In this document: positions 22,288 through 61,050 of the stretch, piece after piece
How the letters are laid out: each line of letters opens with the position of its first letter
How positions within the stretch are numbered: position 1 is the first letter of the stretch
From: a virus
Reading direction: 5' to 3' (one strand)
IMG/VR virus record: IMGVR_UViG_3300019776_000919
Location: 32,001-96,000 of that record
DNA: 64,000 bases
Position numbers and translations under genes: made by a program
The notes under the pieces: generated by a model
Databases searched by the model: none
What the model saw: only the letters and a program-made list of their open reading frames with translations
Told to the model about the DNA's origin: nothing

Positions 22288-22484
22288 ACAGAATACCCTA
22301 TATCAACATTAGGTACCCCTACGATACTTTCTTTTGAGAAAATACGCCATTTACCATCCTGGAAAATTACCTTAGTTTCTTCCCCGTCCAGAATAATAAT
22401 TAACGTATCAGTTCGTTCCAGTTTTACCTTCGCCTCGGAATATCTGAGCAAAGGTAAATCCATGTCTGCAGTTGTTAAAATCAT
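22284..22484 (-). CDS. Hypothetical protein
   Basis: 66-aa ORF, ATGA-coupled. Confidence 0.45.
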   Translation of the reverse strand: MILTTADMDLPLLRYSEAKVKLERTDTLIIILDGEETKVIFQDGKWRIFSKESIVGVPNVDIGYSV

Positions 22485-22497
22485 ATTTTTTTTACGT

Positions 22498-22525
22498 AAA
22501 AAAAGCCTATTGAAATAGGCTTTTT
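22498..22525 (-). terminator. Rho-independent terminator (bidirectional form)
   Basis: AAAAAGCCTATT-GA-AATAGGCTTTTT. Confidence 0.75.
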
Positions 22526-22544
22526 AGCTTAGTCAAATATTGAC

Positions 22545-23579: not shown

Positions 23580-23585
23580 TTCGAT

Positions 23586-23747
23586 TCACTTCCTCGGGTT
23601 GTTGGCCATTTGGCCGATAGCGGAATCCATGTTGGATCCAGATTGAGTCGGGATGACGGTTTGTTTTGAACCACCTTCTTGCCCCTGAGATAGGAACAAA
23701 ACAATGGCACCGAACAAAGCCAGACCCACGGCGGTCAGAGCTTTCAT
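23586..23747 (-). CDS. Small membrane/secreted peptide (53 aa, MKALTAVGLALFGAIVLFL...)
   Basis: Read manually; GAGG RBS; fills the gap between two GC-rich genes. Confidence 0.5.
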   Translation of the reverse strand: MKALTAVGLALFGAIVLFLSQGQEGGSKQTVIPTQSGSNMDSAIGQMANNPRK

Positions 23748-23748
23748 G

Positions 23749-24567
23749 CTACCTCTTGATGGGTTGCGGTTGGTAAATTTTGCTGTCCAGCGTTTCCAGG
23801 ACCACAGGACTGCTTTGCGTCAGTGCAGGCTTTGCCCCGGGAGGTGAAGCAGTCGCAAGAGTTTTTGCACGAGCAGAATCCGTCATGACGCGTTTCATGT
23901 GGTCCAAGTTGGCAAACGAATCGGTCATTCGTTTTTGGATTGCCAGGATCGATTCATCCTGCTGGATCTTGGCAATGGCTTCCGTTTTGCCAATACGGCC
24001 AGCAAATTTCGACAGACTGTCGCTGGACTGAGTAGCCCGCCAAATAGAGTCGGCCCGCTTGATCTGCTTGGAAAATTCCACCAGACCATCTTTGGCTTCA
24101 GAAATGGCTTGGTACACCAGCTCCCGGGTTTGAACCATAGATTCCAGGTGAGCCTTGAAGGCCGCAGCATCTTCTGGATAATTGCGGGCAATTTCTGCAA
24201 CTACCGGCTTGTGAGCTTCAACTTGTCTGCTGAACTCGTTTGCCATTTCCTCGTCAGCGTTGATCTGCTGCTGAGCCTTGTTGTAAAGGTTTTGCAGAGT
24301 CTCGACCGGATTTCTTCGGCTCTCCCATTTGATGGCTTTCAGGGTGGCATTACCCACCATGATGCCAAAAACAGGAGCCATCTTCAACGCAGTCCAAGCG
24401 ACTGCGCTGGCCACCAGAAGCCCTATCAAGCCGCCAATTGCCATGAAGATAAAAGGTGCGACCATAACGCACCCGACCAAGCCTAGGACCCAAGCTATCG
24501 TGCCTGAGAATCCTGTGCTGGTCGCCCCATCGAGGGGTTTGGGAAGGAACTTTTCAGAAAAGGACAT
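23749..24567 (-). CDS. Membrane-anchored coiled-coil protein (PspA/IM30-like)
   Basis: Two TM helices then NPVETLQN and a long coiled coil; start set at MSFSEK (AGGAG RBS) because the track start lies inside tRNA-Leu. Confidence 0.6.
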   Translation of the reverse strand: MSFSEKFLPKPLDGATSTGFSGTIAWVLGLVGCVMVAPFIFMAIGGLIGLLVASAVAWTALKMAPVFGIMVGNATLKAIKWESRRNPVETLQNLYNKAQQQINADEEMANEFSRQVEAHKPVVAEIARNYPEDAAAFKAHLESMVQTRELVYQAISEAKDGLVEFSKQIKRADSIWRATQSSDSLSKFAGRIGKTEAIAKIQQDESILAIQKRMTDSFANLDHMKRVMTDSARAKTLATASPPGAKPALTQSSPVVLETLDSKIYQPQPIKR

Positions 24568-24597
24568 TGGATCTCCTATTAGTCCTTGTTTGTTAAC

Positions 24598-24682
24598 TGG
24601 TGTGGGTAGAGGGACTCGAACCCTCAAGCCTTGCGACGAGGCATTTTAAGTGCCTTGTGTTTACCGATTTCACCATACCCAC
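24598..24682 (-). tRNA. tRNA-Leu(UAA)
   Basis: GTGGGTA...AGGCA-CT-TAA-AA-TGCCT, long variable arm, GGTTCGAGTCC, TACCCAC-A-CCA. Confidence 0.95.
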
Positions 24683-25119
24683 TATGTATTTTTATAAGAT
24701 ACTTTCTTAATTACATTTTCTATTGTTTTTCTGCTAACCCCGTATTTTACAGATAGCAATGAAATGAACCCTCGTGTCTTAGGGAACGACCTTATCTCTG
24801 AAACATCTTTTTCTGAAAGTTTTGATCTACCGTTCCCAGAACCGGAAAGTTTAGACTTGTGACTTTCAGAAAGAGATATTCCTTTTGATGGTGAGAAATT
24901 TTTACGCTGCTTTTTTACGTTATCTGATTTTGACAACAACTGTAAATTAGAAATATCGTTGTTTAAACAGTTATCATCAATATGATCCACTTCCATGGCG
25001 GGATCAATTTTTACACCATGATGTTTTTCGTATAGGTAGCGTGGATATGAAACGGTCTTACCATCGATTATGATAATCAATCTACCATCTGTTCTTTGGT
25101 AAGGACCGTGCGTAGCCAT
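24682..25119 (-). CDS. Free-standing HNH homing endonuclease
   Basis: EVDHIDDNCLNNDISNLQLLSKSDN; NUMOD-like LSESHKSKLS and C-terminal HTH. Confidence 0.88.
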   Translation of the reverse strand: MATHGPYQRTDGRLIIIIDGKTVSYPRYLYEKHHGVKIDPAMEVDHIDDNCLNNDISNLQLLSKSDNVKKQRKNFSPSKGISLSESHKSKLSGSGNGRSKLSEKDVSEIRSFPKTRGFISLLSVKYGVSRKTIENVIKKVSYKNT

Positions 25120-25122
25120 TTA

Positions 25123-25395
25123 TTAATGCCCCTTTGACTTCAGTGCCAGATCTAGCATCTTGTTTTCTGCTTCCAAGGAATTGATCTTTGCTTGAAGTCT
25201 TTCAAACTCCACTGCGATAACTCGGAACCTCCTGGCGTGAACCAGAAATTCTTTTCCTTCAGGCAAGCCTGTGTACTCAGCGGCAAGCCGTTGAGATTCC
25301 AGTGCCCAATCTAAAGGCGTAATCAGAATGGATGGAATATTCTCCACCGGGGTTTCCGGAGTCAATGTCCGGCTCGTTTTTTCAGGACTTGTCAT
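25123..25395 (-). CDS. Hypothetical protein
   Basis: 90-aa ORF preceded by a sigma70-like TTGACA-N18-TACAAT at ~25404-25433. Confidence 0.55.
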   Translation of the reverse strand: MTSPEKTSRTLTPETPVENIPSILITPLDWALESQRLAAEYTGLPEGKEFLVHARRFRVIAVEFERLQAKINSLEAENKMLDLALKSKGH

Positions 25396-25665
25396 AGTCT
25401 CTTATTGTAGTGGAAATCGACAGACTTTGTCAAGCCTTATCGGAAAACAAACGGAAGGGCACAAAGACCCACGATGAGGATTGCAATCCCCTCCACGGCG
25501 AAAGGGTCTTCTTTGACCCATTGCTTGATTTGTTCGATGCGGTTCATTTGGTTTCTCCGGTTTGATTAAAGATATATCTCTGTACTAATCTTATACCATA
25601 AATTACAAATAGTATTGAATGTAAATTTAAGCTAAAGAAACGGGGCTGCCGTTTCTGAGGGAAGT

Positions 25666-26052
25666 TTAGACTTCCACAAACCCAACGTGTTTGAACACGC
25701 TCTTTTTTACTACTTGACCTTCCGGGCCGAGGGACTCTTCCGAAACCCTTTCAGAAAAAGCGTACACTGGCTTCAGGTCCAGTTCTTTACATTTAGCCTC
25801 CAGAAAAGGCATTAGGAACGGAGCCCCGCCGATCATCACTGCGGCCGTATCTAATCCTTTTTCGAAGACTTCTTGGAGGCCTAGGGAGGCGATACCCATA
25901 GCCCTCGCCGCTATCCACTTCTTCTCAGGGAGGCTCTCAAAAGATAACAACTCCTTGAGCTTTTTCAAGGAATCCCCTTCCAGGTTAATAACCCCAGCGT
26001 TGACCTGCTCAGGAGTTGCCTTGTGTTGAGTAAGATTGATAATCACTGACAT
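25666..26052 (-). CDS. Csx20-like protein (candidate cyclic-oligoadenylate ring nuclease)
   Basis: N-terminal H-x-x-T-x-EQ, central VMIGG, C-terminal PVYAFSERVSEE...G-x-VVKKSVFKHVGF resembling Csx20; has its own promoter cassette. Confidence 0.5.
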   Translation of the reverse strand: MSVIINLTQHKATPEQVNAGVINLEGDSLKKLKELLSFESLPEKKWIAARAMGIASLGLQEVFEKGLDTAAVMIGGAPFLMPFLEAKCKELDLKPVYAFSERVSEESLGPEGQVVKKSVFKHVGFVEV

Positions 26053-29900: not shown

Positions 29901-32127
29901 TTACAGCAACAAACTGCCACCAAAACTGGCTGCGGATTTGGTTTTAATCTTTTCAATTATTGCATAGATTTCTGTTTGAGTAACTCCGGAATGTACAACT
30001 TCCGTTTCACCCCAAGAGATGCCAACATCGCCTTCACAACCAATGGGTAATTGGAGCCAAGGAAATGCTTTCATCGGGTATTCATCCATGGTCCGATAAG
30101 TTAGGTTAATAACTTCTGCTGCTTTTTCTATGGGGCACTCAATTTCTATCGAATCGTAGCTTGATTCAAAAATATTTTCATATTTTTATGGACTATATCA
30201 TAATGTGTTTAATACCCAAGTACCAAACACATTCCGTGCGCTCTAGAGGTTTTACCACCCGGTCAGGGCTCCATACCTTAGTCTCTGAACCTTCCACCTA
30301 TTCCTAGGCGGCTTGGCTGCTGATTATCCAATCTTTCTCTTTTTCAAACTATCACGTTTACTATTACTAATTACGTTGTAGTAGAGAAAGCTCTCAGGGG
30401 TTTCCAGCAATTCACACGGTTTTCAGTTATTCCTCACGAAATAACGCCGCCTACGTTAACGGTACATGTACAAATAGCACCGAAAGGTTTAACTACTCTA
30501 TTTACTTCTGTAAAAGTAGCCAAGCCGATAGTACTAGTTGCGCTTTGAATGATTACGTTTTGACTGTTGCGCAAAGAACCGTTATAAGCGGCTGTAGGCT
30601 TGAAGCAATTATAAGTCCCGAACTGACGCTTGCGTTGGCCAAGCGGAGTAATACTGAACTGATTGTATAGTGCAAATTTATGAGCTTTTTCAATGTATTC
30701 CTTTACTTTAGGGAAAGTGTTAAAGTACATTGCAATGAGCGTTTCAGCTTCCGATTTTTCCAGGTTAAGCTGCATTGCAATGCCTGCGATTGAAGATCCG
30801 TATAAGCAGATACTCTATATGTTTCCATATAGTCTAGACTATACCATCATCCTTTTATCTGTGAATCGATAAAGGATGCTCGCCGTGTTATGGATAAATC
30901 CATCCTAGTATCATCTGTTCTAGATGACCTATGAGTCGTTGAACCATTTATAACCATCCCTGGTTATTCTGGCTGCTGATTGCCATACCTGATTTCAGGG
31001 TTAGGGTTCCAGCAATTGAGCGAGTTTGCATACTTATGTTACCACAAGTAGGTACCGTAATCAATACTAAAAGTCAAAGTCTTGCTCAGCTGGCGCAACT
31101 CTTTATATTCCCTATATTTAGGATGACTGCTGTCTGACAACACAGCAATAATCTCTTCATAAGGAATCTTTCTCATGGCACTTGCAGAGAATGAATGGAA
31201 GTCCAATCCCTCTGCAATAGCTTTCAGCATAGCTGGCTCTTTGGATATGTTTGCTAGAACCTTGACTTCAGCAGAGCTAAAGTCAAAGCTAATAAACACA
31301 TACCCCTCCCTTACAGTATAACAAGTTCTTACGTTGTATCCGTGCCTTGCTCTTGGGAGCTGGGTCAGGTTAGGATCTGAACCGGTTATACGGAATGAAG
31401 AGGTGCCAAATTGATTGTAACTGGGATGAATTCGTCCGTCTCTTTTTACCCAGTCTTTGACGTACGTTTTAATGAACGTATTATGAACCGAGGAAATATC
31501 ACGGCGAACAGCCATATCAGCTAGGAACTGAAGCTTTTCATCTTTAGTTACGTATTTACCACCTAAAGGATCTAATCCTGCAAGAGTCAATAAGGCAACT
31601 CCATCAGTAGCAGGTTCACCACCTTTCGTAGTAAACGGTACTTCAAACCCTAGTTCTTCATACAAAAAGCTAGCTACTGCAGGGCCAGAATTTAAATCAA
31701 TTTTCTTCCCAATTTGAGAGAATATCTTATCTTCTAATTGAGCTATTTGCTCAACCATCTTTCTATCAAGGAATTGATTGCGGGGGATGGAATAACCCAT
31801 ACCTGCAATTTCCAAGTCGATAAGAAATTCATGAGCTGGTATTTCTAATTCCAAAAAGCTTTGAATTATAGGCGGAGCTTTCGAGTCCACTCTATTGCCC
31901 CGATCATCAAAATCGATAATCGGAGTTTCCATTACTAAATCTGGAAAAGTCTTGGCTAAAAGTTCAGACGTAGCAATGCAATCTATGCCTGCATAAGTAT
32001 AGAGTTTTTCTTCATCGAAATCTTCATACGTAAGTTTTTCTGAGGCGCTTACTTCTGATTTCTCTTTAGACTCGCTGTTTTCAGAATCGTCAAATAGTTC
32101 GTCAATCCAAATCAGTTGTGAACTCAT
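29901..32127 (-). CDS. polA: Family A DNA polymerase, C-terminal subunit; spliced join(32127..31064, 30806..30459, 30159..29901)
   Basis: ExoIII YAGID; R-I-T-G-x-x-PNLTQLP; motif A FDFSSAEVKV; splicing restores motif B KTLTFSI|LYG and motif C TV|YDS in frame. Confidence 0.92.
30160..30458 (-). mobile_element. Group I intron 2 in polA (299 nt, no ORF), in motif C
   Basis: Exon ...ACCGU with IGS GCGG; core AAUUGCUGGAA, AAUCAGCAGCC, UUCAGAGACUA, GAUAUAGUCC; terminal G; junction GT|C restores Val-Tyr-Asp-Ser. Confidence 0.93.
30807..31063 (-). mobile_element. Group I intron 1 in polA (257 nt, no ORF), in motif B
   Basis: P1 GUAU|UG-AUUA-CGGUAC with U-G at the splice site; core AAUUGCUGGAA, AAUCAGCAGCC, UUCAACGACU, GGUAUAGUCU; terminal G; junction AT|C restores Ile-Leu-Tyr-Gly. 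Confidence 0.93.
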
Positions 32128-32670: not shown

Positions 32671-33963
32671 TTAATCGGCATATTCAGTGCCAACAGTTTC
32701 CAATTCAGCGTCAGCTTCTTTCGCTCTAAGCTTTGCTAGTTTCTTCAGATCACCTAGGCCATCTTCGTAACCAGCGTAACCTTCTTCGTACAGATAATCC
32801 CAGCAAGCTACCTTTAGGCCGTAACATCCTTGAGTACCAGATTCAATACTGTGCAATACTAGTAAAGTATCAAAAGTAACATTGACGACTCTAATGTTTT
32901 CTGCCCAATATAATACCAATATATCAAATTTTGCGTTGTGGCCTACTTTTGGTCGCTTACTTAAAAGAATCGGTTTAACTAAATCCCACGCTTCATCATG
33001 GTCATAAAATTTATTCTTACGATGCCGTAAAGGTATTACTCCAGCTACTACTTTACCCGTAACAGAGTCTCTCCATCCGAACTGAATAGTTAAGATTTTC
33101 AGATTTGGATCTAGCGGATCAAGAGAAGTTGTTTCTGTATCGAAAGATATTACTGCGTTTTCAGGAAGAGCTTCTATAGTATTTACTATAGATTTAACAT
33201 CTTCAATACTTCTTGCAATTTTGATTCTTTTGTTTAATGCAGTAAGAGCATTGAGATGAGTATCTGCGCCGAACTTCCAATCACCCCGGGCTATTTTTGC
33301 AGCTTTTTCAAAATCCCTCTGAATAACTTTCATATAGTCAGGCCCCCACATGCCGCCTTGACCACGGGCGTTTTGCCGAATATATGAAAGAATTCTGGGG
33401 TGTAGTGTAAGTACTACAGGACCGAAATCGGACATACATACTTCTCCCCGATTTCCAGAATTACTTTTATTTAACAGTCCTAAAGATTTTGTAGTAGCAG
33501 TTCCTAAAGATATAATTGCTTTAGGTTTTGTTCTCTTAATCTCTGCTAAAAGATACGGAGAACATTTCTGAAGAGTAGTTTGAGTAGGTGGTTTTCCTTG
33601 GGGGAAATCTGCATTACTGGCTTTACATTTAAGTAAGCTTACAACTCTGAAAGTAAGGCCTTCTAAACCAGATTGATTAGCTATGAAGTTTATGATACCG
33701 GCTTGGATATTGTCCTGTTGATCCGGTCTGCGATCATATTTACCAGGAGGGTTTTGATGATCTTGAATAATCAGAACATCCACTTCATGGTTTAAAAGAC
33801 TCACTACATTTGTAGTTTTACATTTTAGTTTACAGATTTTTTCACAATAAGTGTCATCTATTTTTGAGAAGTCAGTAAGTTTAATTATTGCAGCCTGAGT
33901 TGCTGCTGTTATTTTCGGCCTAGAGTAAAGTTCCTCTAGGCTAAGGTCTGTTAGTTTTGCCAT
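32671..33963 (-). CDS. Family A DNA polymerase, N-terminal subunit: UDG family-4-like domain + ExoI/ExoII of the 3'-5' exonuclease
   Basis: LLKC, KCSPYLLAEIKRTKPKAIISLG, TLHP (SPO1-type UDG-like domain); FDTETTSLD and GHNAKFD; start set at MAKLTD downstream of the promoter. Confidence 0.85.
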   Translation of the reverse strand: MAKLTDLSLEELYSRPKITAATQAAIIKLTDFSKIDDTYCEKICKLKCKTTNVVSLLNHEVDVLIIQDHQNPPGKYDRRPDQQDNIQAGIINFIANQSGLEGLTFRVVSLLKCKASNADFPQGKPPTQTTLQKCSPYLLAEIKRTKPKAIISLGTATTKSLGLLNKSNSGNRGEVCMSDFGPVVLTLHPRILSYIRQNARGQGGMWGPDYMKVIQRDFEKAAKIARGDWKFGADTHLNALTALNKRIKIARSIEDVKSIVNTIEALPENAVISFDTETTSLDPLDPNLKILTIQFGWRDSVTGKVVAGVIPLRHRKNKFYDHDEAWDLVKPILLSKRPKVGHNAKFDILVLYWAENIRVVNVTFDTLLVLHSIESGTQGCYGLKVACWDYLYEEGYAGYEDGLGDLKKLAKLRAKEADAELETVGTEYAD

Positions 33964-33996
33964 ATTATTGTTATACCACAAATACCTGTAAAACCT

Positions 33997-41504: not shown

Positions 41505-42290
41505 ATGGATCTCGGCGCGTACTATGAAAGTATAACAAAAGAACCCTTGTTAAGCAAGGAAGAAGAGTATGATTTTTTCTTAGAGATGAACGATGCGTCT
41601 ATCTCAGAAAAACGTAAAAGAGAAATTCAAGATAAAGTTATACGAGCAAATCTTAGATTTGTATTTAAGGAAGCTAAGAGACGCAGTAAAGGAGATCCTT
41701 ATCTTTTTGAAGAACTTATTGCAGCAGGTAATGATGGTCTTATCGCTGGAATGAGTAAGTATGACCCTGACAGCGGATACAGATTTCTAACCTATGCCGG
41801 GTGGTGGGTTCTTCAAAGAATGCTTAACGTCATGGGTAAACAGCGAATAGTTGCATTACCTATATGGAGGCAGCAATTATCCTCCAGAATAGAGCGAGTG
41901 ATTGAAGCCAATGAAGATATTACATTCCCCGAGCTAAAAAAACACTTCCCAGAAGTACCAGATAAGGATCTTAAAGAACTATTTGAAACTCGCTTCTTAA
42001 CCTTCTATATAGAAGATATGGGAGAAGACAGTGAATTTCAAATAGACCCTATTGAAACAGTCGTCAACACAAAACTTGACAACGAGCGTATTCAAAGCAC
42101 TGTAGAGCAGTTACCTGATTTGCATAAGCAAGTTATACAAGCTTCGTTTGGATTGATAGACGGAGATGATAAAAGAAAACCTGCAGATATTGCTAAAGAA
42201 TTAGGGATCTCCAGGGATAGGTTTAATCAAATTAAACGTGAATCTCTGGAGATGTTGCGTTCAAAATTCGGGGGAGTCAACCCCTTTTAA
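41505..42290 (+). CDS. Phage-encoded sigma70-family RNA polymerase sigma factor
   Basis: PLLS-x-EEE, ANLRFV, ELIAAGNDGL, YDPDSGYRFLTYAGWW, region 4 IAKELGISRDRFNQI. Confidence 0.92.
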   Translation: MDLGAYYESITKEPLLSKEEEYDFFLEMNDASISEKRKREIQDKVIRANLRFVFKEAKRRSKGDPYLFEELIAAGNDGLIAGMSKYDPDSGYRFLTYAGWWVLQRMLNVMGKQRIVALPIWRQQLSSRIERVIEANEDITFPELKKHFPEVPDKDLKELFETRFLTFYIEDMGEDSEFQIDPIETVVNTKLDNERIQSTVEQLPDLHKQVIQASFGLIDGDDKRKPADIAKELGISRDRFNQIKRESLEMLRSKFGGVNPF

Positions 42291-51889: not shown

Positions 51890-52174
51890 TTATCCCGGGC
51901 TGTCAGTATTGATATTGAGTAACGCGTCAAATAGCCGCTGAAATACTATCGTAAGGACGACACATGCATACACCATTAAAACCAATAGTACACTAGTAAC
52001 AAATATTGAATTTATACCTGGTATGTATGCAATTCGAAATGGTAGGCGTACATCTTCTCCAAATCCCGGCACGTCCAGTTTTACTGGAAGTATTATTACA
52101 CAAATTAACCAGGAGAAAAAATAGAGAAGAAGAATTAAATTTAAAATGTTCATGTTACTTGTAATTTGGTCCAA
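51890..52174 (-). CDS. Small membrane protein
   Basis: Two TM segments, YIPGIN motif. Confidence 0.5.
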   Translation of the reverse strand: MDQITSNMNILNLILLLYFFSWLICVIILPVKLDVPGFGEDVRLPFRIAYIPGINSIFVTSVLLVLMVYACVVLTIVFQRLFDALLNINTDSPG

Positions 52175-52258
52175 TAAAAAAAACTAAGAGGAGAAGGAGA
52201 GAACCTCTTAGTTTATAAACCGACTAATCTCTAAAAGAGAATAGTCGGTTTTTTTACA

Positions 52259-53086
52259 TCACAGACCGTTTTGCAGGACCGGGATTCCGCCACGGGTAAC
52301 CGGGGCCAGAGCCTTCGGAGCCTTGTCGCTACCGAACAGGTCACCGTCACCCAGCAGGGCCATCATGACCATGGGGTTCATGCCGCCAGCACCAGCGCCG
52401 CCCAGGCCACCGGTCATCATCAGCAGGGGCAGCATGTCCTTCAGGTCACCACCCTTACCGCCCAGACCGCCGTCTTTCAGCAGCATCAGGGGCAGGATGG
52501 ATGCCATGGGATTGGCAGCGGGAGCGCCAGCAGCGCCGCCAGCAGCGCCAGCTTGAGAGGTCAGCAGCAGCAGGGGCAGCAGCTTTTCCAGCTTCGAGTC
52601 GCCGTCGTTACCACCCAGCATCAGCAGAGGCAGGAGGTTGCTAGCGAAACCAGCAGCACCATCGGCACCGCCAGTGAAGCTGAACAGATTGCGAACAACC
52701 AGGATACCTGACGAACCCAGGATTTGAACCTTCGGGGGGCTGTAGGTCTTGTTGTTGCCATTGTGATCCAGAACCTTCAGAGCAGCACCAGTCTTACCGG
52801 TAACCCAACCGATGATGCCAGCATCACCAACAACGATATCGCCTTCGTTGACTTCTTCAAAAGTCGACTGGGTAGCGAAAGCGGGGATTTTGACTCCCAG
52901 ACCTTCGATGGGGTTGACGTTAACGCCGTAGATCTTCGGATCTGACGGAGTAGCGCCATGGGCAATCGACAGGCTATAAACGCCGTTTGCAGTTTCCAGG
53001 CCGATGCCGCCAGTAGTGATGTCCCAAACCAGGCCGCTGATGCGACGGAACATACGATTCATGAACTTATTGGTAATATTTGACAT
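52259..53086 (-). CDS. Gly/Met-rich low-complexity protein with repeated LPL(L/M)(L/M) motif
   Basis: GC-rich codons; followed by a terminator-like hairpin at ~52217-52255. Confidence 0.7.
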   Translation of the reverse strand: MSNITNKFMNRMFRRISGLVWDITTGGIGLETANGVYSLSIAHGATPSDPKIYGVNVNPIEGLGVKIPAFATQSTFEEVNEGDIVVGDAGIIGWVTGKTGAALKVLDHNGNNKTYSPPKVQILGSSGILVVRNLFSFTGGADGAAGFASNLLPLLMLGGNDGDSKLEKLLPLLLLTSQAGAAGGAAGAPAANPMASILPLMLLKDGGLGGKGGDLKDMLPLLMMTGGLGGAGAGGMNPMVMMALLGDGDLFGSDKAPKALAPVTRGGIPVLQNGL

Positions 53087-53221
53087 ATTGTTACTTTCAA
53101 TTGAACTAAAGAATAAGAAAAAAGAACGCGTTGCTTTTTATAGTTTTACCAAAAAAAGAAGCTTCTAATTTTCACAATCTGGTTGCCCAATCTGTTACTA
53201 ATCAGAAGCCTCTTATAAAAA

Positions 53222-53297
53222 TGGTAGCTCCGGCTGGAATCGAACCAGCGACCTTCACCTTATCAAGATGTTGCTCTACCGACTGAGCTACAAAGCT
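53222..53297 (-). tRNA. tRNA-Ile(GAU)
   Basis: AGCTTTG...CATC-TT-GAT-AA-GGTG...GGTTCGATTCC...CGGAGCT-A-CCA. Confidence 0.9.
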
Positions 53298-53402
53298 AAG
53301 GAAACTAAGAAAACCTTAGACGTAAGTCTTGTTTACAATTTTCTTATACCACGTAATTTGAAAATATTGAAATACTATTATAAGTTATTAGGTTAGTGTT
53401 AA

Positions 53403-53418
53403 AGCTTAAAATAATAGC
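53403..53418 (+). promoter_or_regulatory. Candidate late promoter
   Basis: AGCTTAAAATAATAGC, matching 4582-4598. Confidence 0.45.
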
Positions 53419-53441
53419 AACTTTCCTAAATATAAATCCAA

Positions 53442-54362
53442 ATGGCATTTACTTCTTTTACTAGATCATATGGCGTAGCTTACGCTAACTACAAGGTACA
53501 AATTACCGACGCCGCTAACGGGGCGTCCGCCATCGTATTAAATACCTCAGGGGCTGTGTTAAGTAACATTGGACTAGCTACCTTAGACTCCAGTGGAAAT
53601 TTATCTGTAATACTAGATGACTCTAGAACTTGGAATGTAAATGTAGTAGATGAAGTTCACGACGCTAATACTATCGGCATGGCTACTTCATCACCTAGTG
53701 GTCTTCTAGGGCCGGACAATAGGTTAGCTCCAGGTGCTCTAACTCCGGCGCAAGCCAATGCTCTAAAGAGTTCAGATGGTGCATGTGGATACTTAGGTAC
53801 TTTAGCTTGGGCAAGCAGGCCACTTACAGGATTAAGTGTAGGTAATACCGCTAGGTTTACTGGAATTGGTAGACAAGTGGAGTTATGGACTTGGGATGGC
53901 TCAAGATGGATGGCACCCGGCATTATAATCTTGGCACAATCAGCAGTAAGCGCACCTTTAACCGGAACAACTTCAGCCACTATACTTACAAATATTACAA
54001 TTCCAGGTGGATGTATGGGTCCTAACGGCAGTATTAGAATTACTTTCTACGGATCCATGACTAATAACGCTAATAATAAAACTTGGATTGTTAGATTCGG
54101 AACGTCTACTACTCAATATTATTTAGTAGGGCTTAGTAATGCTGCGGCAGTATGGTCTACTTTAACAATTTCAAACAGGGGTGCAGTCGGTGCTCAAATA
54201 GGCACTCCTACCGGATCTTCTGTAGCCCCGGGTCCCATTCCTGCGCTAGTAACGGGAAGTGATAACACTGATGTGGATCAAACACTGCAAATTATCGGTA
54301 TTCTAGGTACGGCGTCAGACACTATGGCCGTAGAAGCCTATAAGGTGGAACTATTGCAGTAA
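53442..54362 (+). CDS. Putative virion fibre/appendage protein
   Basis: Ala/Thr/Gly-rich beta composition, W-x-WDGSRW motif, beta-sandwich-like C-terminus. Confidence 0.55.
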   Translation: MAFTSFTRSYGVAYANYKVQITDAANGASAIVLNTSGAVLSNIGLATLDSSGNLSVILDDSRTWNVNVVDEVHDANTIGMATSSPSGLLGPDNRLAPGALTPAQANALKSSDGACGYLGTLAWASRPLTGLSVGNTARFTGIGRQVELWTWDGSRWMAPGIIILAQSAVSAPLTGTTSATILTNITIPGGCMGPNGSIRITFYGSMTNNANNKTWIVRFGTSTTQYYLVGLSNAAAVWSTLTISNRGAVGAQIGTPTGSSVAPGPIPALVTGSDNTDVDQTLQIIGILGTASDTMAVEAYKVELLQ

Positions 54363-55363
54363 TGATAACATCCACAATTCCAGTTCTGCAAGGAAGCGTC
54401 ACTGTACCAAGCGATTTTTGTGGAAATCATTTCAACAACGTATCGCCTGTAGAAAACCAATATCGAAGCTGTGTTCTACATGATGCCGCTGGGTGTGATT
54501 GGGGGGAGATACATACTGCTCCAGGGGTATTTAATTGGTCTGCTTTAGATGCAAGAGTTGCTTCTATAGGTTCAAAATCTTGGACTTATGTTGTATCCAG
54601 AACTCCTACTTGGGCAAGTGCTAGACCCAATGAGCCTCACCCTTATGGGGCTGGGGCGGCGGCAGAACCCGCTGACATGTCTAATCTTTACAACTTTATC
54701 GTAGCTCTTTGTAATAGATACCCTACTCTATCCAAAATAGAAGTTTGGAATGAACCAGATATAGCTGCTCCGTTTGCCCCAATATGGTATACAGGTACTG
54801 TTGCTACTTTTGTAACGTTAACTCAAAGTATATATAACGCTGCTAAATCTGTCAGACCCCAAATAAAAATACTTGGGCCATCTTGTACGAACTACTTAAC
54901 CACTTGGTTTAAACAGTTTCTTCAAGCAGGAGGGGGTTCCTATATAGATGCTTGGGCAATTCACGGTTATTTCTTACAATGGAGTAGCCCCAACAACTCT
55001 ATGCTAGGGTTATTAAGAACAATCAATTGTTTATATGTATCTTGTAGTGATACAGGTATTACAAAATCGGAAATTTACTTGACTGAATTTGGTCAATTTG
55101 GAGCTAGGGCAGAATCTTCTGATTCAGAATACATACGTCAATTTAAACAAGGTATGATTCTTGCTGCGGCACTGAAGATAAAGCAGGCAAGTTGGTATGC
55201 ATACGATGATGCCGTGATGGGGTATTCTGGTCGCCCAGTAGTTGAAAACGCAATAGCTGATTTTATAAACAGTTTTTGTGGATCTACGTTATCTAATGTA
55301 ACAATAAACATGCCAGAATGTTCTATTACATGCTCTATTAACGGCGTTGTTCAAACAATCTAA
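54362..55363 (+). CDS. Clan GH-A glycoside hydrolase (GH39/GH5-like)
   Basis: G-x-FNW-x-x-LD, TP-x-WAS, acid/base EVWNEP, IHGY, nucleophile YLTEFG. Confidence 0.8.
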   Translation: MITSTIPVLQGSVTVPSDFCGNHFNNVSPVENQYRSCVLHDAAGCDWGEIHTAPGVFNWSALDARVASIGSKSWTYVVSRTPTWASARPNEPHPYGAGAAAEPADMSNLYNFIVALCNRYPTLSKIEVWNEPDIAAPFAPIWYTGTVATFVTLTQSIYNAAKSVRPQIKILGPSCTNYLTTWFKQFLQAGGGSYIDAWAIHGYFLQWSSPNNSMLGLLRTINCLYVSCSDTGITKSEIYLTEFGQFGARAESSDSEYIRQFKQGMILAAALKIKQASWYAYDDAVMGYSGRPVVENAIADFINSFCGSTLSNVTINMPECSITCSINGVVQTI

Positions 55364-55402
55364 AAAATAAACTAAAAGCTAGGGGGTCCTAGCTTACCTG
55401 GT

Positions 55403-56332
55403 TTAACCCAGGCTCTTCAAGTGTTCATGCACTGCGTCATTGGTACCCAGCAGCACCATGACTTGTTTACCGCCCCGGCGACCAAGCACCTTCTCTTTGT
55501 GAGGCTTGCTCATAGCCCCTTCGAGCACGATCATGTGATCGTAACCCATGATGCCCCGGATATCCGGGTCAGTCGAGGTTTCAATTTTAAGATGCGGATG
55601 CTTGCTCTGGTAGTTCGGCTGCAGGGCGTGGTTCACACCAAAGATCAGCACAGACGGTTTGCGCTTCGGTTGATGCAACGGGGCCGCAGTCAACGGGAGT
55701 TCCATTGCTTGGCTTTGCCCTTCTGGCCGGGTCAGGACATCCATCATCCCCTCCACTTCTGCCCGCAACTGACTCAGTTGAGCCAATTGCTGATCCTGTT
55801 TGGAAACCAGCTCAGTGAACTGAGTCAGAATCTTCGAAGAGATGGCGTCAACCAACTCAGGCATCATGGCCCGCAACTTGTCCTCAATGATCTTGCTAGC
55901 GGGGATCTCCACCTTCTCCCGTACCATGGGGGATGGAATGATGGCCTTGAGCTTTTGGGTTTGCCCGTAAGGCTTATCCCGGCCAGTCAATGTTGGGACG
56001 TAGTGACCAACGGAGAAGTCCTCAACCTTGGGCGAAGCCTTTTGAGGAGACGTGGTTGCAACCAGCTCTTCAATCTTCACCTCCAGTTCCTTCGCTGCTT
56101 TCTCTTTCTGAGCAGCATAGATACTCAGGAAAGTGCGGCTGGTGTCGTACAAAGTCGAAGGGCTGGTGAAAGCACGGCGGCGGTGAATGGGGAGATCCAG
56201 TTGGACTTCAAGAAGAAGTTCACGAAGCTCCTTCATTGTCCGAGGCTTTTCCGCCTCGTTTCTTGGGCCAAACTTTGCAGCCATCAAAGCCAACTCGTCT
56301 GCGTCCCAAAAAATTCGAACACGTTTGATCAT
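55403..56332 (-). CDS. Hypothetical protein
   Basis: 309 aa, GC-rich, behind the repeated promoter cassette. Confidence 0.65.
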   Translation of the reverse strand: MIKRVRIFWDADELALMAAKFGPRNEAEKPRTMKELRELLLEVQLDLPIHRRRAFTSPSTLYDTSRTFLSIYAAQKEKAAKELEVKIEELVATTSPQKASPKVEDFSVGHYVPTLTGRDKPYGQTQKLKAIIPSPMVREKVEIPASKIIEDKLRAMMPELVDAISSKILTQFTELVSKQDQQLAQLSQLRAEVEGMMDVLTRPEGQSQAMELPLTAAPLHQPKRKPSVLIFGVNHALQPNYQSKHPHLKIETSTDPDIRGIMGYDHMIVLEGAMSKPHKEKVLGRRGGKQVMVLLGTNDAVHEHLKSLG

Positions 56333-56413
56333 TGCATACCCTCATATGCGGTTTAGAAGGAATATCCCTTCATACTATTCTTATACCATATTACAATGTA
56401 AGAATTGACTAAA
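56332..56413 (-). repeat. 82-bp promoter/leader/RBS cassette, copy 1
   Basis: Identical to 57842-57923 except one base; contains TCAA-N16-TGGTATAAG, a leader hairpin and GAGGG-TATG. Confidence 0.9.
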
Positions 56414-56467
56414 TAATCTAAAAACAGGTATTTAAACCTGTTTTGGTCAACTTCTTGACCGGAATTA

Positions 56468-56950
56468 CTACTTTGAGTAATTCATCATGCAAAGGAAGAG
56501 GTAGTCGTTGATTTCGTCTATTTCTACATTACAAGGCTCTTTGAGCAAATCAATCCCTTTGTTGAGACTCAACAGAGCATATATGAGAAACTCTATTGCA
56601 TCACCGATATTGGTGGCGTCAAGCGCCATCTTAAAATATCCCGCTGGACTGGCTGGGTGAAACCATTTAGCAAGGTATCCAGTTTCCATTCCCTCTACAA
56701 GGTCTCCGGAGACATTGTTCAGTTTATTCGAAACCTTAGTGACGAGGTCGTCCGACAGTAACTCCCAAAACTCTCTATGAGCTTCTCCGCCCATCAGTTC
56801 CAATTTTGAAAGATTCATCGGGAGAACTTTCAGCAAATCTTTTGCCGAAATATTCTCGTCAAGTTGACAAAGAACTTCTACGTCCTCTTTAATCTCGTAA
56901 AACTTAGCAAGGGCAACTAATTCTGCTTTTTTAAAATATAACATTTTCAA
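56468..56950 (-). CDS. Hypothetical protein
   Basis: GGAGG RBS with TTG start behind a cassette-type promoter. Confidence 0.6.
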   Translation of the reverse strand: MKMLYFKKAELVALAKFYEIKEDVEVLCQLDENISAKDLLKVLPMNLSKLELMGGEAHREFWELLSDDLVTKVSNKLNNVSGDLVEGMETGYLAKWFHPASPAGYFKMALDATNIGDAIEFLIYALLSLNKGIDLLKEPCNVEIDEINDYLFLCMMNYSK

Positions 56951-57072
56951 CCTCCGTATATGTAAGGAAGAGATATTTCTTCGTACTATTCTTATACCAT
57001 ATTACAATATTAGAATTGACTAGGAATTATCGTTTTCTTAACTAAAGAAATGGGGTTGCCATTTCTAACTCC

Positions 57073-57474
57073 TTATTGGAGTTTTATCGGATTTATCTCC
57101 GGGTTGTTGAACACCCAAAGGTCCAACGCTTTTCTCAAAGTGTCACCTTGAATGCGAGTCAGGGACTTGTCCTTGAGAGGGATCAGTTCCAGTGCAATGC
57201 CATAGCTATCAAGGACATGACCGACCTTGATGATCGTCTTGAAGAATTGGTCCAGGCCAACTCCCAGGTCGACGCACAGCATCATTGCCTGGTTGAAGTC
57301 AAGGGTCAATTCTCCCCGCTCGTAACGAGAGTAATGCTTTTCGCTTACTTTCAGCGATCCGCACACCTCGGCTCTGGTGGCTTTGCGAAGCTCACGGTAT
57401 TTCCGAAGCACCAGCCCGACAATTTCGGGAAAAATGACGTAGAGATTGTTGCTCATTTCAACCTCCGAAAGCAA
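57073..57474 (-). CDS. XRE-family HTH protein
   Basis: LRKYRELRKATRAEV...YSRYERGE; real start may be MSNN. Confidence 0.8.
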   Translation of the reverse strand: MLSEVEMSNNLYVIFPEIVGLVLRKYRELRKATRAEVCGSLKVSEKHYSRYERGELTLDFNQAMMLCVDLGVGLDQFFKTIIKVGHVLDSYGIALELIPLKDKSLTRIQGDTLRKALDLWVFNNPEINPIKLQ

Positions 57475-57847
57475 TGGCTGTGTGTTCGTTATCCAATTGG
57501 ATAACTTTGTCCTTGATAAGATCTTTCAAGGCTTTACCACGGAGTTGGATTCCGGAAAGTTCCTCTTTCTCCACTTCAACTTCAATCCCCTTGTCGAAAA
57601 GGAAACACTCGACGCCGGACGTAATTTGAAAGAAGTCTTCCATCTGAACGTCCAGATGGGTGAGCGTCAGGTAGAGATTGGTGACGCTCATCGGTACTTC
57701 ACCAGTTTCGTAGCGGGAGTAAGTAGAGACCGAAACCTTCGTTTCGGCGGCTACTCCGGTCTGAAGGAGATTTCTCCGTTTGCGGAGCTGCTCGATAATA
57801 GTGCCGACGAGAACGTCGTACGTACAGAAAACTTCGGTCATTTGCAT
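57458..57847 (-). CDS. XRE-family HTH protein (paralog of neighbour)
   Basis: LRKRRNLLQTGVA...STYSRYETGE; shares I-x-L-x-G-x-x-L-type C-terminus. Confidence 0.8.
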   Translation of the reverse strand: MQMTEVFCTYDVLVGTIIEQLRKRRNLLQTGVAAETKVSVSTYSRYETGEVPMSVTNLYLTLTHLDVQMEDFFQITSGVECFLFDKGIEVEVEKEELSGIQLRGKALKDLIKDKVIQLDNEHTAIAFGG

Positions 57848-57923
57848 ACCCTCATATGCGGTTTAGAAGGAATATCCCTTCATACTATTCTTATACCATA
57901 TTGCAATGTAAGAATTGACTAAA
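57842..57923 (-). repeat. 82-bp promoter/leader/RBS cassette, copy 2
   Basis: Direct repeat of 56332-56413. Confidence 0.9.
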
Positions 57924-57929
57924 GTAAGC

Positions 57930-57955
57930 TAAAAACAAGGGGTTTAGCCTTGTTT
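57930..57955 (-). terminator. Rho-independent terminator immediately 3' of the structured RNA
   Basis: AAACAAGG-GGTTTAG-CCTTGTTT with A-tract. Confidence 0.7.
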
Positions 57956-58446
57956 GCTGCCGTTAGGCAGATCGTGAAGAACCCTTGCAACCCTAGGGAT
58001 GGTTAGTCTTAAGTCGAAAAGTCGGAACGCAGGTAGTCGGTAAATCGGATAATCGAAACGTCTGAATTCGGAAATTCGGAGTACCGATAATCCACCCAGT
58101 TATAGCCAGGCGGATGTGTTGTTTCCAATAAATAAGGTTTGCTTTACCGATGCAAATTTGGCACCTAACGATGGTGCCCCGACAATGTAGCTGCGCAACT
58201 ACTCGTGATAGGCTCACGGTGGCCTTCCTAGTCGCATTGCAAAGGTTCTTTTTATTAAGTATTACACGTATATATAGAATGTACAGCCAATAAGGCGAAC
58301 TTCTTAGCGCTACCTAAGTTTCATGCTTCTTATTATAACTAATACATTCCTCAACTAGATGGAGTCCCTACGCAGGCTCTGTCCTTTTCAGGGAGCGTAA
58401 GTATCCATTACGTGAATACTTAATTCACGATCTGCCTAACGGCAGC
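57956..58446 (-). ncRNA. Candidate ~490-nt structured RNA (or MITE-like element) with a 23-bp closing stem and short-repeat array
   Basis: Perfect 23-bp inverted repeat 57956-57978/58424-58446; nested stems 57978-57990/58237-58249 and 58255-58270/58409-58423; nine 7-8-nt repeats at 58005-58080. Confidence 0.7.
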
Positions 58447-58456
58447 TGTTTCAAGG

Positions 58457-59146
58457 TTAGTTGAAACGAACGGTCAGCGGGATTGCTGCATACTCCGGCT
58501 GGATCGGAATGTAGATCGTATTGACCTGTTCCAGATTCAGGTTGAGTTCAATGGCCCAGTTTGCCTGTTGGATTGCAGCGTCCGCTTCACGCAGGCAGTC
58601 CGAAGCAAAGCGCAAGGCCTTGACGGCACCGATCACGTCGAACGGCGTGTAGGTGAAATTCCAAACGTCTTCTGAACCACCCTCCTCTCCGGGTCGGGTA
58701 ATCCGGCCGGATTGAGGGACACGGCTGATGCCAACCACCTGCTCACCGCTGTTGGGACGGGAGGTCATTTCCGTCAACAGACGGACCTTGATCTGCAGCT
58801 TCTTGCGCAAGAGCAGCAGCTGACCCAGGGTGATCGAAACCTTGTTCTGATTCGGAGTTTCAGGGTAGCTGTTCGAAAGCAGGTATTCGGGGACCTGCAG
58901 GGTCGTCGAGGCGTTGGCCGTTTGGATGGCCAGATCCAGGGCCGTGATTGCGTTCAAGATGTAGTCTTGAGAACGCAGGGCGCTTTCAACGGTCTCGACG
59001 TGAACTCGCTGAAAAACTTCAGCGGTAACGTTTGCCCCGAGGGCGGTGCTGATCCTCTGCGGCTTCGGCGTCAGGTGAGCCGTGCTCAGCATCGTGACCT
59101 TCACGTTCATTTCCTTGCGTATGGTCAAAGCTTCAGCGAGTTTCAT
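58457..59146 (-). CDS. DIP1984/DUF6847-like helical protein
   Basis: MKLAEAL-x-x-R start, internal TL-x-Q-x-L-x-x-R repeat, I-x-x-AN twice, C-terminal AIQQANWAIEL; family recognised from memory. Confidence 0.65.
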   Translation of the reverse strand: MKLAEALTIRKEMNVKVTMLSTAHLTPKPQRISTALGANVTAEVFQRVHVETVESALRSQDYILNAITALDLAIQTANASTTLQVPEYLLSNSYPETPNQNKVSITLGQLLLLRKKLQIKVRLLTEMTSRPNSGEQVVGISRVPQSGRITRPGEEGGSEDVWNFTYTPFDVIGAVKALRFASDCLREADAAIQQANWAIELNLNLEQVNTIYIPIQPEYAAIPLTVRFN

Positions 59147-59192
59147 TTCAGTTCTTTCAGTCGGGTTGAAATAGTCGGATTGGATTTGCAGT

Positions 59193-59711
59193 TTACGACC
59201 GCAGGCGTTTCATGCATCGATCAAGTGCTTCTCCATCGATAACCCCTATGGAGAAGAAATCCTTGGGGTCAAGGGTTAGTGACCACCGATCTTGGCAATC
59301 CATTGTGGTTGCCGTGAAAGGGACGGTATTGATCACCACCACGAAAGGGTAACTTCCTTTTGAACCACGGATCATTTCACCACCAAATTTCTTGACGATG
59401 TCACCGACCTTCAAGGTGACTCCCGTCCTGACCGTCTCTTTACGGACTTCAGGGGTGGGCGAAGTCATTCGAGGTATCAACGGCTCCGCAATCAGCGGTT
59501 GAAAACCCAACCCAACTTGCAGGGTAGGGATTTCTTGCGTTGCCGATTTTTTGGTTTCCACCTGAATCAACTTGGGACCCGAATCTTGTTTCGGCAATTG
59601 ATTCGGCATCCGGAAAGGAGGAGCTGATTTTTCAATCGGCAAATTTCCAATCCCCGTTACCAACGAAGGAGGAGTGGTTTGAATCTGGAAATCAGACATA
59701 GCGTGTAACAC
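59193..59711 (-). CDS. Hypothetical protein
   Basis: Pro-rich N-terminus, SH3-like LKVGDIV domain; start probably MSDFQ. Confidence 0.55.
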   Translation of the reverse strand: MLHAMSDFQIQTTPPSLVTGIGNLPIEKSAPPFRMPNQLPKQDSGPKLIQVETKKSATQEIPTLQVGLGFQPLIAEPLIPRMTSPTPEVRKETVRTGVTLKVGDIVKKFGGEMIRGSKGSYPFVVVINTVPFTATTMDCQDRWSLTLDPKDFFSIGVIDGEALDRCMKRLRS

Positions 59712-59731
59712 CTATTTGTTCAAGTTGGTAA

Positions 59732-60280
59732 TGGTAGGCCGTGTTGGATTCGAACCAACGACCAAAGGATTCGTACCACTTCGACTTTCGCCGCCGTCTT
59801 TCGACGTTCGTGGTCTGGACTATGTCTTGACCATACTACCGTCGCAGGTTAGGTCCGTGCTGTTTAGTCTCTACACCTTTCGCCTTAGGGGAGGCGACTT
59901 GGCTCGGCATTAGCTTGGAATTGTATGAACACGTCAGGAGTTCAGGAAAGGGCGCACCACAATCCTTCAGTCCATGATCACTATTCATGCCCTTCTTTAG
60001 CTTTCGCCGAATTTAACACGATTCATCCCAAATCTCACAGTAGTTCGCATTGCATCGGATTAACCTATCCTCTGAGGGGAGGATGATTGAATTATGCCTT
60101 GTGAGCATATCAATTTATTTGCAATGTTACTATACCGGCTTTTGATTTAGTTTATACGCCTTTCGGTTGAGTCGTTACGCCATCCGGGCTGATGACTACC
60201 GCTCATTTTTCGTAGATGCACAATACTGAAAATGAGATTTACTATGAGTCCTCTGCTCTAACCATCTGAGCTAACGGCCC
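59732..60280 (-). tRNA. tRNA-Ile2(CAU), interrupted by a group I intron; exons 60280-60244 and 59771-59732
   Basis: Spliced product GGGCCGTTAGCTCAGATGGTTAGAGCAGAGGACTCAT|AATCCTTTGGTCGTTGGTTCGAATCCAACACGGCCTACCA folds as a cloverleaf; resembles Ile2 rather than Met. Confidence 0.9.
59772..60243 (-). mobile_element. Group I intron (IC3, Azoarcus-like), 472 nt, no ORF
   Basis: Core GUUAAAUUCGGCGAAA, GCUAAUGCCGAGCCAAG, AAGGUGUAGAGACUA, GACAUAGUCCAG, GGCGAAAGUC; P1 CUCAU|AGUA:UACUGUGAG; terminal G. Confidence 0.92.
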
Positions 60281-60522: not shown

Positions 60523-61050
60523 TCATCGTTTAAATTTTGCCCGTGTGAAGATTAAAGCCGCCAAAGCAATGCCGAGTAAGAACATGGATCCGGGTTCAGG
60601 GACCTTGTTAGTTAATACTAGAATTTCTTTTTCCTGACTACGTTCCTCAGGGATGGGGTCCGGGATTTTGAACTCAGTTCGTTGATGTCTGTCAATTAAA
60701 GAAATGTTGTTGCAAACAGTAGGGATTATTACACACACTTTCGGGGTGCAATAAACCAGGCCTCGTTCAACCCTGGCAGGCTCCCAGTTCATTTTGACAT
60801 TTCGACAAATCTTATTTCTACCAAAAGCCATGTAGCGAAGATTGTCATATTTGTAGTAAAAGCCCTCAATACCCTTTTGAGTAATGGTTGCCATCTCTAC
60901 ATAGTCTTTTTTTTCAACTAGAGTGGTTAGCTTTCGCTTATCCTCTATGTCAATGGGTAAACGATAAATTGCATCACCTAAATTTCCGCCGCCGTTCCGA
61001 AACGAATCCAATCCTGGATTTGTCCAATCGCAATTGTCCAGAAATATCAC
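60523..61050 (-). CDS. PEP-CTERM sorting-domain protein (MHFG-family-like)
   Basis: C-terminal VPEPGS + TM helix + basic tail; C-x-W-x-x-PG, MAFG, ERGLVYC, PTVC-x-N. Confidence 0.8.
   Translation of the reverse strand: MIFLDNCDWTNPGLDSFRNGGGNLGDAIYRLPIDIEDKRKLTTLVEKKDYVEMATITQKGIEGFYYKYDNLRYMAFGRNKICRNVKMNWEPARVERGLVYCTPKVCVIIPTVCNNISLIDRHQRTEFKIPDPIPEERSQEKEILVLTNKVPEPGSMFLLGIALAALIFTRAKFKR

Follow-up and report, generated by a model that had tools for sequence, protein, structure and literature searches.

A complete phage genome of 169,713 bp (IMG/VR record IMGVR_UViG_3300019776_000919) carries a tRNA-Ile2(CAU) gene that is split, directly after the anticodon, by a 472-nt, ORF-less group I intron, which belongs to the IC3 family of bacterial tRNA introns and has an intact catalytic core. 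The reading that we consider most probable, with a probability of about 0.72 given the sequence, is that of a working phage tRNA gene with a self-splicing intron, in which the intron is a selfish passenger and the expansions at its periphery have no apparent role. The element itself is of a known kind but in a rarely reported place, and what sets it apart is mainly the phage genome that hosts it and its unusual size.

The split tRNA gene and its surroundings

The stretch of DNA analyzed here (hereafter, the window; 64,000 nt) corresponds to positions 32001-96000 of the record, and the coordinates below are those of the window unless the genome is named. The record is complete at 169.7 kb and carries direct terminal repeats, so that the phage genome is whole and the phage origin assigned to this DNA in the initial annotation stands. 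The gene content of the window, which includes ribonucleotide reductase, primase, helicase and DNA polymerase, is typical of a large phage. The layout of the split gene, derived from inspection of the exons and from ARAGORN, is as follows:

60280-59732, minus strand: split tRNA-Ile2(CAU) gene
60244-60280, minus strand: 5' exon, 37 nt, ending in GACUCAU, which spans the 5' strand of the acceptor stem, the D arm and the 5' strand of the anticodon stem
60243-59772, minus strand: group I intron, 472 nt, which starts with AGUAAA and ends with UACG
59732-59771, minus strand: 3' exon, 40 nt, AAUCCUUUGG...CCUACCA, which starts with AAUCC

The loop portion of the 5' exon, CUCAU, stops at U36, which is the U-1 of the intron, and the last base of the intron is a G (omega G, 59772). 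The 3' exon contributes the AA that completes the loop, the 3' strand of the anticodon stem, the variable loop, the T arm, the 3' strand of the acceptor stem, A73 and an encoded CCA. In its default mode, ARAGORN lists eight other tRNAs in the window and misses the split CAU tRNA; with introns allowed, the program reports a tRNA(cat) with a 472-nt intron and with ends identical to those given above. Thus, the initial description of two tRNA halves 472 nt apart was correct in all its coordinates and counts, and the placement of the intron right after the anticodon (CAU|AA), with a terminal G, was correct as well. Insertion after the fifth base of the anticodon loop (CUCAU|AA) is the classical ‘Ile2.5Ug' setting, the site of the Azoarcus intron (Williams 2020), so that the sameness of the site with that in the Azoarcus tRNA-Ile(CAU), also claimed at the outset, is confirmed.

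Several features of the genomic surroundings deserve mention in their own right. The G+C content reaches 44-50% in two patches of the window, 52000-60000 and 22000-26000, against about 38-40% in the genome, and the former patch takes in the split tRNA together with an adjoining RNA-rich region. Just upstream of the split tRNA, a 175-aa protein (60523-61050, minus strand) ends with a PEP-CTERM motif (PF07589, 26 bits, over its cut-off); such an ending is odd in a phage protein and may hint at an exosortase-bearing host. Elsewhere in the window (17481-21376, minus strand), the gene for an 865-aa Pnkp protein, with kinase, phosphatase and PNKP_ligase domains (PF16542, 107 bits), overlaps that for a 433-aa Hen1 protein (PF22032, 119 bits, plus a methyltransferase domain), a pair which suggests that RNAs cut by nucleases, tRNAs for example, are mended by the phage.

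Identity of the tRNA and predicted decoding of AUA

Joining of the two exons yields a 77-nt product that forms a regular cloverleaf with A73 and an encoded CCA. Among 5,426 E. coli genomes, the best matches to this product are genes annotated as tRNA-Ile (86-87% identity over 77/77 nt), and the one match that was inspected (87%) has the anticodon CAT, so the spliced tRNA is assigned to the lysidine-dependent tRNA-Ile2 type, as the initial annotation had it. The split tRNA also carries C4-G69, C5-G68 and G27.U43, which we take to be recognition elements of TilS in E. coli. When introns are allowed in the ARAGORN search, the split gene turns out to be the only CAU tRNA of the phage; ATA makes up 24.6% of the Ile codons of this phage (15.9 per 1000 codons). 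TilS was not found among the proteins encoded by the phage and, therefore, the lysidine modification and, with it, the decoding of AUA would depend on the host.

The group I core and family membership

The original assignment of the insert to group I is borne out by searches with covariance models. The Rfam model RF00028 matches positions 60061-59792 with 46.2 bits (E-value of 1.8e-10 for the local search and 8.8e-12 genome-wide), a score that falls short of the curated gathering threshold of 50 bits because of the large insertions and the poorly aligned P1 and P2 elements. No other Rfam family matched within the intron. For comparison, hits of at least 18-20 bits have been accepted when located inside split tRNA calls (Williams 2020).

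Viral, genomic and metagenomic collections were searched for relatives of the intron with a motif of the core, and 40-44 compact introns (190-250 nt) located in split tRNA genes, each with U-1 and a terminal G, were aligned. In this alignment, helices P2, P3, P4, P5, P6, P8 and P9 covary strongly (for example, the P3 pairs are distributed over GC, 17, CG, 17, and UA, 6), which indicates that the reference structure can be relied upon. A covariance model built from 40 of the compact introns, with P9 trimmed off, assigns 109.3 bits to the window intron (E-value of about 4e-23), within the 104-120 bits obtained for bacterial tRNA introns that were left out of the model training; the same model yields 38.9 and 21.5 bits for the two introns in the DNA polymerase gene of the window.

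The window intron agrees with the family base at each of the 52 positions with a conservation of at least 95% among 84 relatives and shows standard pairing in 24 of the 29 modelled pairs, with all five failures confined to P2. Helices P3, P4, P5, P6 and P8 are all paired, and the P7 strands (AGACUA/UAGUCC) are identical to those of the family. The compact, GNRA-capped P2 of the family, present in each of the 44 relatives in the alignment, is not seen at the expected location. Judging from the sequence, then, the insert belongs to the IC3 family of bacterial tRNA group I introns, and its catalytic core (P3, J3/4, P4, J4/5, P5, P6, J6/7, P7, P8 and J8/7) is complete, without any sign of decay.

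Anatomy of the intron and its expansions

The following parts of the intron were delineated:

60029-60213, minus strand: insertion within P2, 185 nt, branched, intron positions 31-215 (from folding)
60005-60021, minus strand: 5' strand of P3, J3/4 (AAA) and 5' strand of P4 (UUCGGCG) (from Rfam and the family model)
59916-59998, minus strand: P5 extension, with about 78-83 nt more in the P5 loop than in compact relatives (from the family-model alignment)
59855-59909, minus strand: 3' strand of P4, P6/P6a hairpin, J6/7, 5' strand of P7 (AGACUA) and 3' strand of P3 (from Rfam and the family model)
59817-59854, minus strand: P8 with a CCUAA...UAUGG receptor-like motif, J8/7 and 3' strand of P7 (UAGUCC) (from the family model)
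59772-59816, minus strand: P9 domain, an ACCAC/GUGGU helix around two GAAA-capped hairpins, followed by ACG (from sequence, folding and alignment)

The 3' end of the intron, GUGGUACG, is a variant that occurs within the family, and the extra sequence of about 270 nt is accommodated in P2 (185 nt) and in the P5 loop (about 78 nt). The folds of both insertions are barely more stable than those of shuffled sequence, with z-scores of -1.9 for the P2 insertion and -1.0 for the P5 extension. No open frame on the strand of the intron exceeds 58 codons, and the longest one has no start signal, and a tblastn search with 74 ORFs from long tRNA introns against the intron matched only the shared ribozyme core; hence the extra RNA contains no recognizable endonuclease remnant. 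A decayed endonuclease gene was considered as the source of the insertions and discarded, given that neither the ORF scan nor the tblastn search produced a signal.

Mobile group I introns are defined by an endonuclease ORF inside the intron, and the window intron contains none; because it has no endonuclease gene, we read it as an immobilized element rather than one that is mobile on its own. It is among the larger ORF-less members of the family, which reach 576 nt (L153) and include introns with large peripheral insertions. The best explanation of the peripheral expansions appears to be that they are dispensable for the chemistry, with no apparent role.

Proposed splicing pathway and pairing at the 5' splice site

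Given this anatomy, we infer a conventional route of self-splicing. The precursor would be a minus-strand transcript in which the ribozyme core folds and the end of the 5' exon pairs with a guide sequence, with U36 forming a U.G wobble. Free guanosine would attack after U36, and the freed 3'-OH of U36 would then attack after the terminal G (59772), joining GACUCAU to AAUCCUU and releasing the intron. In the spliced product, the host TilS would convert C34 into lysidine, enabling the tRNA to read AUA, and the intron would persist as an immobilized selfish passenger by virtue of removing itself from RNA.

Two sequences are candidates for the guide:

60219-60225, minus strand: candidate guide A, UAUUGUG, intron positions 19-25 (from homology)
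60214-60218, minus strand: proposed 5' strand of the helix closing P2, CAUCU, intron positions 26-30 (from homology)
60024-60028, minus strand: proposed 3' strand of the helix closing P2, GGAUG, intron positions 216-220 (from homology)
60034-60042, minus strand: candidate guide B, UACUGUGAG, intron positions 202-210 (from folding)

With guide A (model A), the putative P1 is a 7-bp helix formed by exon CAU and intron AGUA, and GUGCA is found after the guide as in compact Ile2.5Ug introns (for example, L016). In this model, a proposed 5-bp helix (26-30/216-220) closes P2 around the 185-nt insertion, its GGAUG strand being located directly 5' of J2/3 (AAU), which is followed by P3. With guide B (model B), P1 would be a stronger, 9-bp helix that involves exon CUCAU and AGUA and leaves no P2. 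The U-G pair at the 5' splice site noted in the initial annotation can form in both candidate helices. The nearest-neighbour energies are -154.9 kcal/mol for model A, -163.5 kcal/mol for model B and -165.6 kcal/mol for the unconstrained fold, so that the homology-based model A lies 10.7 kcal/mol above the unconstrained fold, in which intron positions 3-29 are paired with 188-215 and both guides are buried. The trimmed covariance model cannot place P1 and P2 in the window and, therefore, offers no choice between the two guides; we favour the P1/P2 pairing of model A because it keeps the layout of the family. The splice-site sequence CUCAU..AGUA is repeated inside the intron, at positions 8-20, and because this copy can also pair with UACUGUGAG, several 5' pairings compete.

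The native-like fold of the intron differs from its minimum-energy fold and the usual place of P2 is without the compact helix and its conserved GNRA loop (L2), as one could expect if a real core with an enlarged periphery required assistance from a phage or host RNA chaperone or a maturase-like factor. However, neither the intron nor its vicinity encodes a candidate for such a factor, and small IC3 tRNA introns, such as that of Azoarcus, splice efficiently in a protein-free manner (PMC13168695), so we consider protein-assisted splicing extremely unlikely.

According to the initial annotation, the unspliced precursor, which has no anticodon loop, would be protected from the anticodon nucleases of the host. 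Put more broadly, this is the proposal that the anticodon loop stays unformed until splicing, which would provide either a nuclease shield or timed AUA decoding, with intron positions 8-20 serving as the switch. The repeat at 8-20 is compatible with such a role, inasmuch as both copies of CUCAU..AGUA pair with UACUGUGAG (202-210), and the Pnkp-Hen1 RNA-repair pair suggests that host nucleases exert pressure on the RNAs of this phage. Nevertheless, once spliced, the tRNA has a standard anticodon loop and would enjoy no more protection than other tRNAs. Among the 12 other tRNAs of the phage, only one is interrupted by such an intron, and that intron encodes a homing endonuclease; comparative support for the alternative pairings is absent. 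A regulated or protective intron is, accordingly, highly unlikely in our estimate, and the shield in its original form has no direct support; the mature tRNA, with its normal anticodon loop, would be exposed regardless. Still less probable is a more specific variant, in which the enlarged 5' domain would be a conformational switch, with intron 8-20 competing with the real 5' splice site for the guide and so gating the maturation of the only AUA-reading tRNA of the phage, while the precursor is hidden from nucleases. Were such a switch to operate, a group I intron would have been co-opted to regulate phage translation, with gating in time or by a cellular signal.

Relatives of the locus and the question of decay

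The relationships of the locus were explored through its neighbouring genes and through the intron itself. Searches with three flanking proteins found no relatives in viral contigs, and a search of 5.8 billion proteins with the neighbouring 229-aa protein yielded no homologue. The helicase search detected two phages at 54% identity, neither of which has a group I intron or a tRNA(CAU). The relative genome (G001), which is 92% complete, with nine tRNAs and a G+C content of 53% vs 40% here, lacks a CAU tRNA and has no group I intron anywhere; hence the split gene does not represent an ancient trait common to the wider group, and the gene is dispensable in that lineage. A gapped pattern that combined a CAU tRNA with a 205-235-nt 5' domain retrieved 115 mostly chance matches and no enlarged Ile2.5Ug intron. 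The core variant CTAAAC retrieved many tRNA introns from the viral, genome and metagenome collections, none of them with the insertions of the window intron, and a BLAST search with intron positions 38-368 produced no match. The tRNA may have arrived together with its intron or may have been invaded by it later.

In a maximum likelihood tree of 164 core columns, the introns group mostly by tRNA setting. The window intron has the longest terminal branch in this tree (0.72) and its position is unsupported; free trees place it away from the Ile2.5Ug introns, and the data are compatible with a tree in which it is forced into a clade with four compact Ile2.5Ug introns (p-AU 0.7). Common ancestry with the Ile2.5Ug introns is, thus, neither shown nor rejected by phylogeny.

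The long branch raises the possibility of a decaying relic, in which the P2 and P5 expansions and the competing 5' pairings would block folding, leaving the RNA unspliced or poorly spliced and the gene close to a pseudogene. The RF00028 score under the gathering threshold, the missing canonical P2, the burial of both candidate guides in the minimum-energy fold and the absence of this tRNA and of any group I intron from the only relative found (54% helicase identity, 92% complete) all point in the same direction. Under neutral decay, however, one would not expect to see zero changes in 52 near-invariant positions and every core helix intact. Furthermore, neither exon is damaged, the cloverleaf being perfect and the CCA encoded, AUA is a common codon in this phage, and the family includes other tRNA introns, 576 nt long, that lack an ORF and have large insertions at the periphery. 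On balance, we regard a relic as unlikely and prefer the working gene with a self-splicing, selfish intron.

Group I introns in phage tRNA genes

As of 2014, all known phage introns were located in protein-coding genes although phage tRNA genes are numerous (Hausner, Hafez and Edgell 2014; PMC3984707), and a full-text literature search found no report after 2014 of a group I intron in a phage tRNA. A BLAST search with the window gene and a compact Ile2.5Ug gene matched three of the 50,697 GenBank phage records. Gordonia phage Daredevil (NC_048021, MH590603) possesses an unannotated tRNA-Lys(UUU) gene with a 238-nt intron (118 bits with the tRNA-intron model), which is located at about 41820-42130 of NC_048021 (L001:1375-1686), between the integrase gene and gene 53. 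The uncultured 595-kb phage LR756511 has an unannotated tRNA-Leu(UAA) gene with a 700-nt group I intron at about 408.6-409.4 kb (L002:869-1655), in which an HNH-type ORF is apparent by eye just 5' of the core. Exact-motif scans of IMG/VR yielded 14 and 42 contigs with this core; it lies inside split tRNA calls, including those for Ile2, Leu, Lys and Arg, in nearly all of the 14 and in about half of the 42 contigs, some of which may be misclassified bacterial DNA.

The same phage harbours a second split tRNA, about 3 kb past the end of the window (genome positions 98959-99691, minus strand; L272:2959-3691). ARAGORN calls it Gln(ttg); application of the U-1/terminal-G rule gives Lys(UUU), with the loop CUUU|UAA, and tRNA-Lys(UUU) is the best reading of this putative gene. 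Its intron, of about 655 nt, has a weak group I core (23.4 bits with Rfam and 24.5 bits with the tRNA-intron model) and encodes a 164-aa PD-(D/E)XK endonuclease (PF11645, 76 bits; weak match to PDB 2OST). Structure 2OST is presumably that of I-Ssp6803I, and we take PF11645 to be the same family as this homing endonuclease of the Synechocystis tRNA-fMet intron. Because it carries a homing endonuclease gene, the second intron behaves as a mobile element. Further along the genome (102027-102231, minus strand; L272:6027-6231), amid additional tRNA genes, lies a tmRNA gene of the permuted, two-piece kind (RF04321, 81.5 bits).

The rule that phage introns are limited to protein genes is, thus, broken by this locus, the second split tRNA, Daredevil and dozens of viral contigs. 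The statement of the initial annotation that a phage tRNA intron is unusual holds with respect to the 2014 review and to GenBank (3/50,697 records) and has to be qualified given that such introns recur in viral contigs and that the same genome contains a second one. Since phages carry the tRNA-intron family of bacteria, they may be vehicles that spread tRNA introns, a possibility that was raised already at the outset. Standard tRNA finders overlook split genes, to the extent that the only CAU tRNA of this phage is invisible to ARAGORN in its default mode; the tRNA repertoires reported for phages, and the codon-usage arguments based on these, are therefore incomplete. If the window intron splices, it would indicate the amount of additional RNA in P2 and P5 that is compatible with a minimal IC3 core. 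With Daredevil, the splicing of a phage tRNA intron can be studied in culture.

Comparison with known systems

The introns in phage protein-coding genes, such as those in td, nrdB and nrdD of T4 and in the DNA polymerase genes of SPO1 and Bastille (PMC3984707), are self-splicing and likewise borne by phages but reside in mRNAs and belong to other subgroups. The DNA polymerase gene of the present phage, the pieces of which include the ORFs at 31039-32127 and 32671-33981, itself contains two group I introns (30169-30467 and 30815-31073, minus strand; 78.5 bits each with RF00028). Among the tRNA introns, that of the Synechocystis tRNA-fMet, which encodes the PD-(D/E)XK homing endonuclease I-Ssp6803I (PMC3984707), is also a group I intron in the anticodon loop, whereas the window intron has neither an endonuclease gene nor a detectable remnant of one.

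The introns of tRNA-Arg(CCU) (‘Arg.5Ug'), tRNA-Leu(UAA) (‘Leu.3Ug') and tRNA-fMet (‘fMet.2Ug') (Williams 2020) have the core in common with the phage intron, and the long P9 of the latter is a form that is common in tRNA introns of the Arg, Leu, Lys, Thr and fMet types. The Arg, Leu and fMet introns differ in that they interrupt other tRNAs at other positions of the loop and have a compact P2 directly after the guide.

In Acidobacteriota MAGs and metagenome contigs (L096, L027, L114, L088, L075, L115, L047 and others), tRNA-Ile2(CAU)-like genes with a related intron were observed. These introns sit elsewhere, between U33 and C34 (GGACU|...AAG|CAUAAUCC), and some reach about 630 nt, with the extra sequence contained in the P1 loop. 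These tRNAs are the nearest exon relatives of the window tRNA, with 89-92% identity over the 5' exon.

The comparison with the Azoarcus intron was made via stand-ins, namely the compact viral Ile2.5Ug introns L007, L010, L011 and L016, which we assume to resemble the Azoarcus intron. Together with L008, L013 and L014, these belong to the compact introns (198-210 nt) found at the same site of CAU tRNAs in viral contigs, in which the guide NNGUG lies 7-11 nt into the intron and is followed at once by a GAAA-type P2 hairpin, and P9 is short. The core of the window intron is 62-65% identical to those of the four compact Ile2.5Ug introns and up to 70-74% identical to those of others, the best full-length-row value being 70.5%, for a Burkholderiales Arg(CCU) intron (L081). 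The initial claim of a core close to that of Azoarcus holds for the shared core blocks; core identity is higher to other members of the family.

The Azoarcus and phage introns are both inserted after U36 of a tRNA-Ile2 CAU gene and lack an ORF. They share the option of a 3-bp CAU/GUG pairing with the exon followed by C, the terminal G, the 40-nt 3' exon and the core blocks AAAUUCGG, CCGAGCCAAG, AAGGUGUAGAGACUA and AUAGUCCAG. In contrast, the phage intron is 2.3 times longer (472 vs 205 nt), with a branched domain of about 195 nt in place of the compact GAAA-loop P2, a 78-nt insertion in the P5 loop, altered P3 pairs and a long P9 (ACCAC...GUGGUACG, with two GAAA hairpins) instead of the short P9 of the GGGAGUGGCGAAAGUCACACAAACCGG type. 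The Azoarcus intron, furthermore, resides in a bacterial chromosome, whereas the window intron is located in a phage and its splicing is a prediction. Thus, the initial label ‘Azoarcus-type' has to be dropped for the periphery, P2, P9 and length of the phage intron, and it remains apt for its family (IC3), its tRNA, its insertion site and the blocks of its core.
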